Shown here: positions 11,213 through 15,846 of the stretch, piece by piece
Layout of the letters: the number at the start of each line of letters is the position of its first letter
Numbering within the stretch: the stretch's first letter is position 1
NCBI GenBank assembly: GCA_046760505.1
Contig: JBHIEG010000026.1
Location: 1 to 21,268, forward strand
From: Candidatus Hydrothermarchaeota archaeon
GTDB taxonomy: Archaea > CAYFZR01
Reading direction: 5' to 3'
Length of the DNA stretch: 21,268 nucleotides
Made by a program: the position numbers and the translations under genes
The notes under the pieces: model-generated
What the model saw: only the letters and a program-made list of their open reading frames with translations
What the model was told of the DNA's origin: nothing
Database searches by the model: none

Positions 11213-11454
11213 TCTTTACCTCCTAATTTTTTATAATTCTGTAATTCGTATTTGTTTATATCATATTTGATGAAATAATTTTTGATTAAATCGATATTCG
11301 AAGTACTACCTGACAATTTTTTCAAATCAGGAGGTTCTTGCCTTTATGCCATCTCAGCACGAGAATCATCTTTCAGGTCTTGTTTTTAGGTGTCTCTTAA
11401 ATATCTGCGAAAAGTTGATATTAGTTTAGAAAATAAAGTTAGTGCGGTGTAGTC

Positions 11455-12432
11455 ATGCCAGTAAGTAAGGCGCCATATAAGAGAGGTTACAAGCATACGA
11501 AGTCAAGGGGTAGCGATCCAGCCGTATGGTGCGAGATGTGCGGGAGAAGGGTTCCCAGATTCAAGTCCTTCTCCAAGATCCAGAGCTTTTACATAGCTGA
11601 TCCTGTGGTAAGGGGAGTGGTAGATCAACATTCCTTCAACGTTAGAAAGGTATATTACTGTCCTAAATGCGCCAAATTCCTTGGAATAGTTGAAAAGAAA
11701 AGACAAAGGATGGAACAACCTAAAAGGATACCTGAAGTATCCGGTAACGTGATTATAAGAAAGATACACGGTCCAGAAGTGATGTTTAAGCATAAAGATT
11801 ATGCCTTCATCATAGATGTTGAAAATAAGAAGGAAAGAATAAAAAATTTGATAATCAGGCCCAAGACAATAGTTCAAAACATCAACCTCGAGCCAAAAGA
11901 GGTAAGGTTTGACGTTCCGGAAAAAACCATAAAACAAATACATTTTAGAGCGAGAGTTGATGATGAAGTAACAATAAAGGGAACCGCAATTTCGTTCGAG
12001 ATTCTTAAAGATGGGAGGCCTCTAGAAAATAAGGTTCATTACGTCAGCATAATGGACGAAAGTGCCCTGAACAAAGAAATAAAACTGGAGATAGAAAAGA
12101 GGTTAGAAAGGACAAAGATTACCGCCAACGAAATGTTAAAGGTTGAATTAGTGGTCAAAAACACCGGAGATTATCCTGCATACTTCGAAATAAAGGATAA
12201 AGTACCGAAGGGATGGTTAACAAGAGGAGACACAAGAGTACACAGTTATCTACAACCCAAGGAAGAATTGGTTCACGTATATCAGATGAAACCCTTTAAA
12301 GCAGGAAAATACAGGATACCAAGATGCGAGATGATGTACGAAGACGATCTCGAGGTTAAAAGGGTTCTCAGCAATGAGGTAACAGTAGAAGTATTGCCTG
12401 CAAAAAAAGCATCAAAGGTGCCCCTAGAATAA
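11455..12432 (+). CDS. Ribosomal protein eS26 (S26e)-like zinc ribbon fused to two predicted Ig-like beta-sandwich domains
   Basis: Basic N-terminus, then CEMCGRRVPRFK and YYCPKCAKFLGIV (eS26-like); C-terminal V.L.VKNTG...IKDKVP.G...LQPKE...GKY.IP.....Y....SN.V.VEV pattern (DUF11/BatD/TRAP-beta-like). Confidence 0.7.
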   Translation: MPVSKAPYKRGYKHTKSRGSDPAVWCEMCGRRVPRFKSFSKIQSFYIADPVVRGVVDQHSFNVRKVYYCPKCAKFLGIVEKKRQRMEQPKRIPEVSGNVIIRKIHGPEVMFKHKDYAFIIDVENKKERIKNLIIRPKTIVQNINLEPKEVRFDVPEKTIKQIHFRARVDDEVTIKGTAISFEILKDGRPLENKVHYVSIMDESALNKEIKLEIEKRLERTKITANEMLKVELVVKNTGDYPAYFEIKDKVPKGWLTRGDTRVHSYLQPKEELVHVYQMKPFKAGKYRIPRCEMMYEDDLEVKRVLSNEVTVEVLPAKKASKVPLE

Positions 12433-12446
12433 ATGAGCAAGCAAAA

Positions 12447-13478
12447 TCATATGTCCCAGTAAGGAGATATCTTCCCCCTGATCCTATTGATTATTTCTGA
12501 GACCCTTTCCGTGATTTTCTGCTCTGGAGGTGGATTTGGTTCTTCAATGGATAATTCCAGGTCCCCTAATTCATTCAGAATGCTTAAAACACCGTAAGAA
12601 ATTCCATCTGGGTGATATCCTCCCTCGAGTAACATGGTAACTCTATTTTTGCATTTCTCAGAAATTTCTCTGATTAAAGAGGCAAATTTAACGAAAGTAT
12701 TTATACTGTACCCTAGGTCTGATATGGGATCTAGGAAATAACCATCAAACCCAGAGGAGACAAGGATGAACTCGGGCTTGAAACTCTCTGTTACTGGGAG
12801 CAGAATCTGGTTCATGATTGCCAGTGCCCCGGCACCAGAGGTCTTTGGAGGAACAGGAGCATTTATGTTAAAGCCCTCTCCCTCTCCCTTTCCTACATCA
12901 TCTATTGAACCCGTCCCCGGATAGAGAGGATGTTGATGGATCGAAAAGTAGAGCACCCCAGGATCCGAGTAAAATATATTTTCAGTACCATTCCCGTGAT
13001 GAGCATCAAAATCTATTATCAAAATTCTCTCTAAAAATCCCTTTAGATAATTAGCGCATACAGCAATGTTATTGAAATAACAAAATCCCCCTCCAAAGTC
13101 TTTACCTGCGTGATGTCCTGGAGGTCTGATCAGAGCAAATGAAAGTGAATGGTTTTCCATTGTTTCTTTAACCGCTTCTATTGCTCCGCTGACAGAAAGC
13201 AGGGCAATATCGTAGGTATTTTTATATACTGGGGTGTCCAGTGTAAGCATTCCACCCCTACTGCTCAGATCTTTCACAAGTTTGACGTAGGTGCTTTCAT
13301 GAGTTTTTTCAACCAAGTGGGAATTCAGTGATTTGGGCTCAATTTTATTAACTTTCTGAAAAATCTCATAAACCTCAAGGAGATCAATGACCGATTGAAG
13401 TCTTTTTGGGTTTTCTGGGTGTCTTGATCCGGGATCGTGCTCCAAGTATTTGGGATGATAGATGATTGATATTCTCAT
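12447..13478 (-). CDS. Zn-dependent histone deacetylase-family protein (HDAC/AcuC/APAH)
   Basis: HPENPKRL, RPPGHHA, GFCYFNN, DFDAHHGNGT, YPGTG, GFDG and LEGGY. Confidence 0.93.
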   Translation of the reverse strand: MRISIIYHPKYLEHDPGSRHPENPKRLQSVIDLLEVYEIFQKVNKIEPKSLNSHLVEKTHESTYVKLVKDLSSRGGMLTLDTPVYKNTYDIALLSVSGAIEAVKETMENHSLSFALIRPPGHHAGKDFGGGFCYFNNIAVCANYLKGFLERILIIDFDAHHGNGTENIFYSDPGVLYFSIHQHPLYPGTGSIDDVGKGEGEGFNINAPVPPKTSGAGALAIMNQILLPVTESFKPEFILVSSGFDGYFLDPISDLGYSINTFVKFASLIREISEKCKNRVTMLLEGGYHPDGISYGVLSILNELGDLELSIEEPNPPPEQKITERVSEIINRIRGKISPYWDI

Positions 13479-13870: not shown

Positions 13871-14626
13871 ATGAATCTGCCAATTTTGCTGCTGCTCGTC
13901 TTTTTAATTGTTCCCATAAGGGGAGATGTAATCCTTGAGTCTACAGTCATTCCGGACCCCATACCCAAGGATGGCTCAGGGGTTCTAATCGTGGATGTTA
14001 GCGTTGTCAAGGACGATGACCCCCTTACAAAGGATACAGCCTACGATTTTTATTTAGAGATTTCATCAGATGCTTTCAAGGGGGAAAATTATATCAAAAC
14101 CAGACCCATAAATCTCCCTGTTAATACGAGCAAGAGCTACCAATTCGATATCAATCCAATTTCATCTGGAAAAGTAGACATCAAGGCTAAATACGGGATA
14201 ATCGTCTGTACAGATGATTACTGTCCCATAGAGCCGAACAAATTTGAGACAAAGACGCTATCAGTTTCATTTGAAGTATCAGATGAATACGCGCCATTAG
14301 GCTACACCGACATAGTAAAAGCAAAGGATATGCTTAAGAAGAATTATGAGAAGAGTTTTGAGGACATAAAAGATCTGAACACAACCATAGTTTCTTTAAG
14401 AGAAAAGTCATCACGCTTAAAAGATGCTTACCTTTCCACGCTATCGAGATATAATTTAAAGAAAGAAAAATTCGAGTATTTTGTAAAAGAAATGGATAGA
14501 GTCAAGAAAGAGAAGATCCTGATCGATTTTTTCTTATTTTTCTCCATTACATCGATCATGGTTAACGATTACATCAAATTAAGGAGAGGAAAAAAATGGC
14601 GAATAGTAAGATGGTCCTACCGATAG
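13871..14626 (+). CDS. Exported membrane-anchored protein: signal peptide, Ig-like domain with C-x4-C, coiled coil, C-terminal TM helix
   Basis: Hydrophobic N-terminus LPILLLLVFLIVP, beta-rich domain containing VCTDDYCP, helical K/E-rich stalk, TM segment ILIDFFLFFSITSIMV and basic tail. Confidence 0.7.
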   Translation: MNLPILLLLVFLIVPIRGDVILESTVIPDPIPKDGSGVLIVDVSVVKDDDPLTKDTAYDFYLEISSDAFKGENYIKTRPINLPVNTSKSYQFDINPISSGKVDIKAKYGIIVCTDDYCPIEPNKFETKTLSVSFEVSDEYAPLGYTDIVKAKDMLKKNYEKSFEDIKDLNTTIVSLREKSSRLKDAYLSTLSRYNLKKEKFEYFVKEMDRVKKEKILIDFFLFFSITSIMVNDYIKLRRGKKWRIVRWSYR

Positions 14627-15846
14627 TACTGCTCTTGCTCTCAACCCCTGTATGTTCCAAGGTTATTCTGGAGTACTTCTGGAATTCTGAATGCGCTGCC
14701 TGTAAACTTCTTGCCAAAGAGATGTTCTTTGAAAAACTGGAGGAGAAATATGGATCAAATCTGATCGTGAAGAAATACAATACGGACAATTCAGAGAACA
14801 GAGATTACTTCAAGACGAAATATAATGGAGAAATTCTTCCGCATGTCGTCATAAACGAAAGAATAAACCTGATAGGGTATGCTGAAATAACAAAAAATAC
14901 TGAACGCATAATTCAAGAAGAAATAAGGAATGGAGGAGTCTCAACAGTTGCGTTTACCAGCAGTATGTTAATCAAGCCTAAAATAAATCCGATCTTAACT
15001 CCTGTGGTTCAAAAAACAAAGGAGGAGACTTCAACCCAAAAAAGACCCCTCACTAGGTATGAACGAATCTCATTGCTTTTGGAAGATATAGAGAAAAAAA
15101 TTGGAAACCTGGAACTCATGGGTATCGACGTTACCGAAGAAAAAGAAAGCCTGAACAAACTTCAATTCAAACTTAGGGGTTTGGATGGGAAGGAAAATGA
15201 AGATGACTACGAGCCAAGGTTAAATGAAGTGCGCATAATGGGAGAGAAGTTGGATGAAAAGATTACAGAGAATGAAAAGAACCTAGCATATGATATGTTG
15301 TCTAAGGCAAGGGACGATTTAATTCCACCAAGAGAAATCTTTTTCATATCTCCAACTGGAAGAGAACTTCTAACCAAGGCCAACGAATATATAGAAAGGG
15401 CAAACTATCAGTACAGGGTGGCCGAAACCGCATATTATTCAAAAGACTACTTAAAGGCATATACATGGGCAGCAACTAGCCTCAACAGTATTAAAAATGC
15501 CAAAGAACTTATATCCAAAGCTGAAATAATGGAAGAGGCATATATTCGGGAAAATATTCAAGAAGATAGTAGAACCGTTAATAAGTATGCTGAAGGTCTA
15601 AGATATAACGACGAAAAGATAAACAAATTACGGAACGAGATATCTACCCTTAAGAGTGAAATCAAATTTTATGAAGACGGTATCGCCACTCATTCGAGGG
15701 GGATAGAAGAGCTGAATTCTGAGATGAAAGAACTCAGCAAAAATATAAACTCAAAGAGAGAGAGAAACTGGAGTTACAAGTTAGGCTTGCTGATTTACAT
15801 AACAATGCTTCTACTCTCAGCGCCTATAAAGGAGAGTGGGCTATGA
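14596..15846 (+). CDS. Exported thioredoxin/glutaredoxin-fold protein with long helical stalk and C-terminal TM helix
   Basis: Signal peptide VLPIVLLLLS, EYFWNSECAAC (CxxC), cis-Pro motif ILPHVVIN, LIG, heptad-rich region and TM segment LGLLIYITMLLL; GAGAGG RBS. Confidence 0.78.
   Translation: MANSKMVLPIVLLLLSTPVCSKVILEYFWNSECAACKLLAKEMFFEKLEEKYGSNLIVKKYNTDNSENRDYFKTKYNGEILPHVVINERINLIGYAEITKNTERIIQEEIRNGGVSTVAFTSSMLIKPKINPILTPVVQKTKEETSTQKRPLTRYERISLLLEDIEKKIGNLELMGIDVTEEKESLNKLQFKLRGLDGKENEDDYEPRLNEVRIMGEKLDEKITENEKNLAYDMLSKARDDLIPPREIFFISPTGRELLTKANEYIERANYQYRVAETAYYSKDYLKAYTWAATSLNSIKNAKELISKAEIMEEAYIRENIQEDSRTVNKYAEGLRYNDEKINKLRNEISTLKSEIKFYEDGIATHSRGIEELNSEMKELSKNINSKRERNWSYKLGLLIYITMLLLSAPIKESGL

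Follow-up and report, generated by a model that had tools for sequence, protein, structure and literature searches.

An eS26 ribosomal protein homologue continuous with two Ig-like domains in an uncultured archaeon

Ribosomal protein eS26 is usually small, some 85-120 aa, and stands alone. Solved ribosomes that contain it include those of S. solfataricus (9fs6, 9fs8) and Pyrobaculum calidifontis (9e71) and the yeast and human 40S subunits. A stand-alone subtype of 83-106 aa is found in Archaeoglobi, Methanopyri, Aenigmatarchaeota and other groups, with Methanopyrus kandleri Q8TZ16 and Archaeoglobus profundus D2RHL9 as examples. Core ribosomal proteins can also carry an additional folded module. 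The eukaryotic ubiquitin-eS31 and ubiquitin-eL40 proteins begin with ubiquitin, which is removed by cleavage. Among archaea, S. solfataricus eS6 carries an extra domain (PMC11698992). [quoted passage not shown] It is argued there, from S. solfataricus, that archaeal eS26 is closer to an exchangeable initiation factor than to a fixed ribosomal protein (PMC11698992).

Here, we describe a 325-aa protein of an uncultured deep-branching archaeon in which an eS26 homologue runs on into two extra domains. The gene lies in a 21,268-nucleotide stretch of DNA (the window), and the ORF list and translation give a single ORF of 325 codons plus a stop, with an ATG start and no internal stops (Table 1). It joins a core ribosomal protein to an extra folded unit, as eS6 and the ubiquitin fusions do, but with another partner domain in another position. 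No earlier description of an eS26-Ig fusion was found in the literature searched, which fits a sequence-only reading of this locus that knew of none. As far as our searches show, the architecture is apparently undescribed and known from a handful of sequences.

Table 1. Features of the eS26-Ig-Ig gene, in window coordinates
Feature	Position	Strand	Evidence
Whole CDS, eS26-Ig-Ig fusion	11455..12432	+	ORF list; contigs of four runs; congener orthologue 86% identical
GGTG, SD-like core, inferred ribosome-binding site, 6-9 nt before ATG	11446..11449	+	Sequence inspection
eS26 zinc-ribbon domain, residues 1-82	11455..11700	+	PDB profile search, fold matches, Cys conservation, dN/dS
Predicted Zn ligands C26, C29, C69, C72	Codons at 11530, 11539, 11659, 11668	+	
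Basic, disordered, fast-evolving linker, residues 83-98, with non-conserved Met87	11701..11748	+	pLDDT, congener identity, pI
Ig-like beta-sandwich 1, residues 99-200, basic	11749..12054	+	Model pLDDT >90, dN/dS, pI; aligned in all fused relatives
Ig-like beta-sandwich 2, CARDB/DUF11/BatD/TRAP-beta type, residues 201-314 (modelled 211-314)	12055..12396	+	Pfam, structure match, dN/dS
Short basic C-terminal tail, residues 315-325	12397..12429	+	Low-confidence model end

The N-terminus is an eS26 homologue despite missing both curated cut-offs. The protein scores 19.4 bits against PF01283 (Pfam cut-off 27) and 26.7 bits (E 5e-6) against NF006816 (NCBIfam cut-off 118). However, most of the stand-alone relatives tested fare no better: four of five fall below the PF01283 cut-off (18.6-24.5 bits; the fifth passes with 41.9), and none of the five reaches 118 bits with NF006816. 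The low score is therefore a mark of the subtype and not of the fusion. A profile made from the N-domain and seven relatives gave 74 PDB matches at E <= 1, and all 60 of those listed are eS26 chains. The best, 9e71_BX from the P. calidifontis 70S ribosome (E 2.3e-11), aligns query residues 6-90 with residues 4-92 of its 100. Since this alignment stops at most eight residues short of the chain end, the eS26 part is complete and the Ig part is an addition to its end. Moreover, when an AF2 model of residues 1-95 (pLDDT 76) was compared with the PDB by Foldseek, all 50 matches listed were eS26 chains, led by S. solfataricus 30S chain 9fs8_b. The TM-scores were modest (0.36-0.49), as expected when an extended protein is modelled without its ribosome.

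The residues that define the family tell the same story. The translation reads C26-x-x-C29-G-R-R-V-P-R-F-K37 and, 40 residues on, Y68-C69-P-K-C72-A-K-F-L-G-I-V79. C26, C29, C69 and C72 are invariant across 46 relatives, most of them stand-alone, and conservation is 90% or more at G30, P34, R35, K37 and P70; the fusion keeps every one of these invariant and near-invariant residues. On sequence criteria, residues 1-82 make up an entire eS26 zinc ribbon, one of a divergent subtype. The sequence-only reading had named these motifs and made its assignment depend on a profile match to eS26, which the family profile supplies and the curated models give below threshold.

Among known proteins, the nearest counterparts are the stand-alone proteins of this subtype. 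These, M. kandleri Q8TZ16 and A. profundus D2RHL9 among them, are 45-59% identical to residues 1-83 and share with the fusion the CxxCG..VPR.K ... YCP.CA..GIV pattern, a basic N-tail and a single copy per genome. However, they stop 9-25 residues past the second CxxC, whereas the window protein goes on for 240 residues more. The eS26 proteins of solved ribosomes are homologous over the whole domain by profile (E 2e-11 to 1e-6) and have the four-Cys zinc ribbon and a matching predicted fold in common with the fusion, but identity is only 20-32%, and the fusion adds two globular domains and misses the Pfam and NCBIfam cut-offs. All solved archaeal eS26 proteins among the listed matches are crenarchaeal, none being of the euryarchaeal/DPANN subtype. 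Naming of the subtype is uneven. The M. kandleri protein is called S26e/eS26 by one source and the A. profundus protein by both NCBI and UniProt ('eS26 family ribosomal protein'), while many Aenigmatarchaeota relatives are filed as 'hypothetical proteins'. Because many stand-alone relatives carry that name and a distant relative is called 'BatD family protein', genomes with this subtype can appear to have no eS26, an annotation blind spot.

The first alternative to be weighed is an artefact, in which a lost stop, a frameshift or a chimeric assembly has run an eS26 gene together with an unrelated gene downstream. The rarity of the architecture gives some reason for suspicion: it occurs at 2 of 80 genome loci and in 4 of 51 matches among 1.84 billion cluster representatives. 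The sequence-only reading had asked for read support here. Contigs assembled from four sequencing runs match the CDS without any difference at word depths of 20-40, and three of these runs have one contig that covers it from end to end, although the four runs come from one study and three are possibly the window's own source. Seven runs were found in all, with no RNA run among those listed. The orthologue in a congener keeps the same frame at 86% identity and dS 0.86 and is six residues shorter at the C-terminal tail. Both halves are under purifying selection, with dN/dS of 0.03 for eS26, 0.04 for Ig1 and 0.09 for Ig2 at dS 0.56-1.08. Three more distant proteins (27-40% identity) also run from eS26 into the Ig region in one frame, and the search of those representatives gave no stand-alone Ig1 homologue that could have served as the source of a join. 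We therefore consider an artefact barely credible: the gene specifies a single polypeptide, and purifying selection acts on it.

Two related possibilities were rejected. An internal restart at Met87, which would make two genes of one, was set aside because this residue varies among relatives: the congener has Ile there, and P0004 has no Met at the equivalent place. The relatives that share the Ig region instead keep one frame. The joining of adjacent genes was examined by tblastn of three Ig modules against 110 loci. A similar gene lies downstream of a stand-alone eS26 only at L028, where it encodes a signal-peptide/TM protein, and we judged this a coincidence.

The architecture, which the sequence-only reading had proposed looking for elsewhere, is thus found in the congener and in three distant proteins. 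The latter (P0003, P0004 and P0005) are 40%, 32% and, by phmmer, 29% identical to the window protein, and all cross the same junction. Four fused N-domains fall on one side of a branch opposite 90 stand-alone sequences (SH-aLRT 91), and the fusion appears to be old and of single origin. What is appended differs among them and can be a pair of Ig domains, three Ig domains or more, or Ig domains followed by further sequence and a transglutaminase core. The last is a 619-aa protein that NCBI names 'BatD family protein', with a BatD (PF13584) score above the cut-off (30.6 bits), and its transglutaminase-fold domain has Cys and His in place as read from the sequence. We found no separate transglutaminase partner in the host genome or congener: matches there were only to residues 3-441 of this relative (eS26 and Ig), and none were to the core at 498-561.

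Structure models support the sequence-only reading's description of two beta-sandwich-like repeats, the last resembling DUF11, BatD and TRAP-beta domains. Both sandwiches (99-200 and 211-314) are modelled at pLDDT >90. The second falls short of the BatD cut-off (PF13584; 22.1 bits over residues 217-313, where 24.1 is needed) and matches TRAP-beta chain 8b5l_v with TMt 0.62 and rmsd 1.9. Its look-alikes in the atlas are CARDB/DUF11/BatD clusters (feature scores 0.88-0.90, a lead only), and its fold is also similar to transglutaminase C-terminal barrels. The first sandwich is nearly without relatives outside the fused proteins, being reached by 2 of 22 Ig-type matches, and its region is basic in all four fused proteins tested (pI 9.1-9.9 in P0001, P0002, P0004 and P0005). 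Within the host genome, repeats of CARDB-type proteins are 26-29% identical to the second sandwich. Surface proteins of the CARDB/DUF11/BatD/TRAP-beta kind carry a signal peptide and are anchored in the membrane at the C-terminus, whereas the fusion has neither and begins with a ribosomal protein. As the earlier reading had held, no signal peptide or TM helix is present, since the Kyte-Doolittle maximum is 0.64 over 19 residues; the host's CARDB-type paralogues (C19, C31) reach 2.5-2.7. A co-model of two copies of residues 95-325 as an Ig-module homodimer scored 0.00 against a mark of 0.42, using a 4-row alignment without controls.

The linker between the two parts raises a second alternative. 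Residues 83-94 are modelled at pLDDT <50, the linker pI is 10.7, and its identity to the congener is 31%, versus 80-96% in the domains. A segment so disordered, basic and fast-evolving would be accessible to proteases. The protein could be a precursor that is cut here to free an eS26 of normal size, with the Ig part acting as a folding or solubility partner or having a separate job, in loose analogy to ubiquitin-eS31/eL40. Some members of the transglutaminase fold are proteases, and one relative carries such a domain with its Cys and His. However, aligning the linkers brought out no conserved cleavage motif, and neither the window protein nor the congener has a protease-like domain. We regard cleavage as improbable.

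What might such a protein do? The sequence-only reading had put forward a ribosome-tethered adaptor, a specialised-ribosome component and an extraribosomal repurposing of eS26 as candidate roles. We lean towards the reading that the fusion is this organism's eS26 and would dock around the 3' end of 16S rRNA, at the mRNA exit channel, holding the Ig module there. A search for another eS26 copy, proposed at the outset, found none. The host genome, the congener and one distant fusion genome each gave one match (E 1e-42 to 1e-45), no further homologue appeared up to E 1 in these three whole genomes, and PF01283 likewise gave a single copy in the host. The host genome (G000) is a MAG of 142 contigs with completeness given as 100 and contamination of 5.67%, in which a second copy could conceivably have been missed. 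Its 16S rRNA covers model positions 4-825 only, with the 3' half unassembled. Since the Ig module starts at the canonical end of eS26, it would extend from the platform on the linker, out into the solvent. The use of SD signals is widespread in this organism: a core of at least 4 nt lies at -18 to -4 in 50.7% of 1,067 long ORFs, compared with 18.8% in a control window, and the GGTG core seen here peaks at -12 to -9. Given this and the SD-excluding, initiation-factor-like behavior of S. solfataricus eS26, the 25-kDa Ig module would most likely serve to tune occupancy of the exit-channel site or to recruit a partner there. Tuning could come about if the basic first sandwich made extra contacts with platform rRNA or proteins. 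The same observations also count against docking, since stable binding that excluded the SD duplex would clash with wide SD use.

A third alternative is that eS26 has been dropped from the ribosome in this lineage and repurposed, its zinc ribbon serving as the RNA- or protein-binding head of a cytoplasmic multidomain protein of the CARDB/BatD type, one relative of which has a transglutaminase-like enzyme. The sequence-only reading had called eS26 patchy in archaea, and we detected a homologue in 22 of 41 sampled archaeal genomes and none in the other 19. As eS26 is dispensable in many archaea, a lineage could drop the ribosomal role and keep the fold. The varying appended part would be a pattern more typical of modular non-ribosomal proteins and counts against the ribosomal reading; the BatD name of the 619-aa relative and an N-domain under the curated eS26 cut-offs point the same way. 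Moreover, neither eS25 nor eS30 was found in the host genome. However, within the protein constraint is strongest on the eS26 domain (96% identity to the congener), this domain has retained the family's conserved residues, four of five stand-alone relatives score as poorly against PF01283, and the fused branch lengths lie within the range of other lineages and are no longer than those of stand-alone clades. Repurposing is, in our view, rather unlikely.

Returning to a ribosomal role, a more specific and tentative proposal is that the fusion is a built-in regulator of translation initiation. The eS26 head would reversibly cap the anti-SD end of 16S rRNA, and the Ig module, or in the sister lineage the transglutaminase-like enzyme, would set its dwell or its cargo. 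If true, two orphan archaeal lineages would possess a ribosome bearing a lineage-specific adaptor or enzyme arm, which could switch between SD-led and leaderless mRNAs or silence idle subunits. The fusion is a natural experiment on eS26, at the one spot of the small subunit that brings the mRNA leader and the anti-SD together. It can show whether eS26 binds stably, what the exit channel tolerates and whether archaea build lineage-specific ribosome-tethered adaptors.

Gene neighborhood offered little further guidance: no functional link emerged from conserved neighbors in the window, the congener or a distant relative, and Rfam found no RNA elements in the window beyond two tRNAs. The neighbors in the window are thiamine genes (ThiD/ThiN), a histone-deacetylase-family protein, tRNA-Gly and other housekeeping genes. 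The neighbors differ at the distant relative's locus, and the deacetylase is common to the window and the congener locus.

We found that the window encodes a protein in which an eS26-type zinc ribbon continues in frame into two Ig-like domains. Residues 1-82 carry C26xxC29-GRRVPRFK37 and, after 40 residues, YC69PKC72AKFLGIV, the eS26 motif pattern that the sequence-only reading had claimed and that the translation contains. Curated models score the protein low: Pfam Ribosomal_S26e gave 19.4 bits, below its cut-off of 27, and NCBIfam S26e gave 26.7 bits, below its cut-off of 118. However, of five stand-alone relatives (eS26-type proteins without the Ig region), four score likewise, with 18.6-24.5 bits from the Pfam model, and one reaches 41.9; the low scores are a trait of the whole subtype rather than of this gene. 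S26e was also the sole family to recur across all five. We ran a profile of the N-domain and seven relatives against the chain sequences of the whole PDB; at E ≤ 1 it matched 74 distinct sequences, and the 60 among the matches listed are without exception eS26. The best, 9e71_BX from a Pyrobaculum calidifontis 70S ribosome (E 2.3e-11), aligns query residues 6-90 with positions 4-92 of a 100-residue chain. An AF2 model of residues 1-95 (alignment of 46 sequences, pLDDT 76) returned eS26 chains as all of the best 50 Foldseek matches listed, led by the S. solfataricus 30S chain 9fs8_b; the TM-scores of 0.36-0.49 are modest, as expected of an extended ribosomal protein modelled alone. Profile search, motifs and predicted fold thus all mark the window protein as an eS26 homologue. 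It departs from plain eS26 membership because its scores lie below the curated cut-offs, its size is outside the range set for the family and its ribosomal location is predicted.

Naming of the relatives is uneven. The Archaeoglobus profundus protein is an 'eS26 family ribosomal protein' at NCBI and '30S ribosomal protein S26e' in UniProt, while NCBI lists that of Methanopyrus kandleri as a 'Zn-ribbon containing protein' and a further source lists it as 'small subunit ribosomal protein S26e'. NCBI labels each of the Aenigmatarchaeota and Micrarchaeota relatives that we looked up 'hypothetical protein'. The window-type subtype appears in none of the PDB structures returned by our searches.

Could the fusion be an assembly error or the product of a lost stop codon? 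Contigs from four runs cover 11300-12500 at a word depth of 20-40 without a single difference in the coding sequence, including the junction for which the sequence-only reading had asked for read support. One contig spans this interval in three runs, and in the fourth (X3) a 2,230-nt contig lies over 11405-12500; all four belong to a single hydrothermal-vent metagenome study, and three are possibly the window's own source. Moreover, a same-genus genome (G001) encodes an orthologue of 319 aa with 86% identity. Nei-Gojobori counts between the two genes, both from MAGs, yield low dN/dS in the eS26 and both Ig domains (see the table). Met87, earlier proposed as a possible restart, is Ile in the congener and has no Met counterpart in the more distant fused protein P0004. 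The four-run contigs, the orthologue, the dN/dS values and the non-conserved Met87 all contradict an artefact, which we consider hardly credible.

Coordinates of the fusion gene, its domains and associated features (dN/dS, dS and amino-acid identity against the G001 orthologue)
Feature	Location	Strand	Details
Fusion gene	window 11455-12432	+	single ORF, 325 codons, ATG start, 0 internal stops (ORF list and translation); GGTG 6-9 nt upstream of ATG
eS26 domain	residues 1-82		dN/dS 0.03, dS 0.56, identity 96%
Linker	residues 83-98		dN/dS not computable (pS saturated), identity 31%
Ig1	residues 99-200		dN/dS 0.04, dS 0.78, identity 94%
Ig2	residues 201-314		dN/dS 0.09, dS 1.08, identity 80%
Strain variants	window, after 11390; 11404		TA insertion; T>C
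A/T-rich TTAAATAT	window 11397-11404		~50 nt 5' of ATG
ORF, 251 aa	window 13871-14626	+	overlaps next ORF
ORF, 416 aa	window 14596-15846	+	overlaps previous ORF
P0004, fused, 619 aa	L005/L016 1010-2866	+	transglutaminase core at residues 498-561
16S rRNA, 5' part only	G000:C42:1-766	-	model positions 4-825, at contig end
Gene beside stand-alone eS26	L028 4320-5648	+	442 aa; 37 nt 3' of eS26

The window is an entire contig of a 2.17-Mb genome (G000) in 142 contigs, with a stated completeness of 100 and contamination of 5.67%. Housekeeping genes lie near the fusion gene: a ThiD/ThiN fusion, a histone-deacetylase-family protein, tRNA-Gly, a polyprenyl synthase, an M20 peptidase and a ClC channel. 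Strain variants among the four runs occur only upstream of the fusion gene, in or beside the A/T-rich stretch, which could be its TATA box. The two overlapping ORFs listed in the table lie next to each other and lack Pfam matches at E ≤ 1e-5; the first resembles a surface protein in its hydrophobic N-terminus and in a hydrophobic stretch close to its basic C-terminus.

An AF2 model of the full protein (17 aligned sequences, only 5 over the C-terminal part; mean pLDDT 84) predicts one all-beta sandwich at residues 99-200 and another at 211-314, most blocks having a pLDDT of 90-96; residues 83-94, between them and the eS26 domain, fall below 50. Foldseek against the PDB matched the C-terminal part to tandem Ig-type proteins: protein 4.2 and transglutaminase C-terminal barrels, ASH/PapD-like ciliary central-apparatus proteins, CEP192 SPD-2 and integrin legs. 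The last domain resembles TRAP-beta (8b5l_v; TMt 0.62, rmsd 1.9 over 115 columns), and BatD scores 22.1 bits on the second sandwich, below the cut-off of 24.1. As no more than a lead, ESM Atlas neighbours fall in CARDB/DUF11/BatD/TRAP-beta clusters. The second sandwich shares 26-29% identity with repeats of CARDB-type proteins from the same genome. Unlike those proteins, which have signal peptides and C-terminal anchors, the window protein has no hydrophobic stretch (Kyte-Doolittle maximum 0.64 over 19 residues), in keeping with the earlier observation that it lacks a signal peptide or TM helix.

How widespread is the fusion? HMMER over 1.84 billion cluster representatives (E ≤ 1e-3) found 51 proteins: 25 stand-alone eS26-type proteins of 68-145 aa, 22 Ig-only matches, just two of which reach the first sandwich, and four that cross the eS26-Ig junction, so the architecture first read from the window does recur. 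These four, each alone in its 90% cluster, are P0002 from the congener; P0003 (216 aa), truncated on a 939-nt contig; P0004 (32% identity) from a distant genome, G025; and P0005 (388 aa), truncated N-terminally within eS26 and bearing three Ig-like units. Beyond its Ig region P0004 continues with additional sequence and with a transglutaminase core, which Pfam Transglut_core scores at 34.5 bits (cut-off 23) and whose catalytic-motif Cys and His are visible. NCBI names it 'BatD family protein', leaving its eS26 head unannotated. Two further scans also show it to be rare. Species-representative genomes gave 86 confirmed loci, of which 80 were kept; only those of G001 and G025 are fused, and the remaining 78 encode stand-alone proteins ending 9-25 residues past the second CxxC. 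A JGI metagenome scan added one fused locus among seven (L102, 85% identity), with two checked loci stand-alone and four of Methanopyri type. An N-domain tree (92 columns; L014 and P0026 omitted for long branches, P0005 for too little domain) placed four fused proteins on one side of a branch and 90 stand-alone proteins on the other (SH-aLRT 91, below the 95 mark), consistent with one old fusion event. In the species-representative collection the window's phylum comprises G000 and G001, and that of G025 comprises G025 alone; thus two deep-branching orphan lineages of archaea carry the fusion. Our full-text literature search returned no paper on an eS26-Ig or ribosomal-protein-CARDB fusion.

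Has the eS26 head left the ribosome? Extraribosomal repurposing would match both the patchy occurrence of eS26 and the varied make-up of the C-terminal part, but the eS26 domain is the most constrained part of the protein and keeps all family-invariant residues, and we regard repurposing as possible but rather unlikely. We favour a ribosomal role. Bourgeois et al. (2025, PMC11698992) describe S. solfataricus eS26 as sub-stoichiometric, loosely bound and incompatible with the SD:anti-SD duplex, and propose that it is initiation-factor-like and favours leaderless mRNAs. [quoted passage not shown] In the PDB profile alignment the appended module begins at the canonical eS26 end, and the Ig tandem would extend out from the platform, tethered by a flexible linker of ~16 residues. 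There it might recruit a partner or add affinity through the first sandwich; this region is basic in each of the four fused proteins that were tested, with a pI of 9.1-9.9. In G025 the same stalk bears the transglutaminase domain, which suggests that an enzyme can be carried at this position. An exposed linker would also suit a precursor that is cleaved into two products, yet it contains no conserved cleavage motif and the protein has no protease-like domain, making cleavage improbable.

The organism is a heavy SD user. SD cores in G000 show strong enrichment 8-12 nt before the first ATG: of the 1,067 ORFs that are 250 aa or longer, 50.7% have a core of at least 4 nt at -18 to -4 (18.8% in a control window), and 25.9% have one of at least 5 nt (3.6%). 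With such wide SD use, an exchangeable, regulated occupant is a better fit than a permanent plug. The assembly lacks the 3' end of 16S rRNA, where the anti-SD lies.

The fused protein appears to be the only eS26 in the genomes that carry it, all of which are MAGs. The subtype profile has exactly one match each in G000, G001 and G025 (E 1e-42 to 1e-45) and no further match up to E 1, and PF01283 on G000 finds the same locus plus one chance-level match; the search for another copy, also suggested by the sequence-only reading, thus came back empty. Of 41 genomes sampled across the domain, 22 have a match (20 at E ≤ 3e-11, two weak), and only in these three does it lie within a frame of > 300 aa. 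eS25 and eS30 are usually listed with eS26 as TACK/Asgard-specific, and Pfam models found neither in G000 at E ≤ 0.01. Stand-alone members of the divergent subtype (83-106 aa; L017-L094, L103-L108) carry the labels Archaeoglobaceae/Geoglobus, Methanopyri, Aenigmatarchaeota, Nanohalarchaeota, Micrarchaeota and Nanoarchaeota, from MAGs and genomes. According to two papers (PMC11698992, PMC3082918), eS26 has not been found beyond TACK/Asgard or is lacking from Euryarchaeota.

Two loci deserve mention. L018, a 3.5-kb contig in a 'Deltaproteobacteria bacterium' MAG, encodes an archaeal eS26 near-identical to that of L017, from an 'uncultured archaeon' MAG, and is probably mis-binned. In L028, from a Micrarchaeota-labelled MAG, the neighbour of a stand-alone eS26 gene codes for a signal-peptide and TM-segment protein made of Ig-like repeats, which are weakly similar to the Ig part of P0005 (22% identity, E 4e-6, small database). 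As the only such case among the 110 loci searched, which are mostly stand-alone eS26 loci, this adjacency is probably a coincidence.
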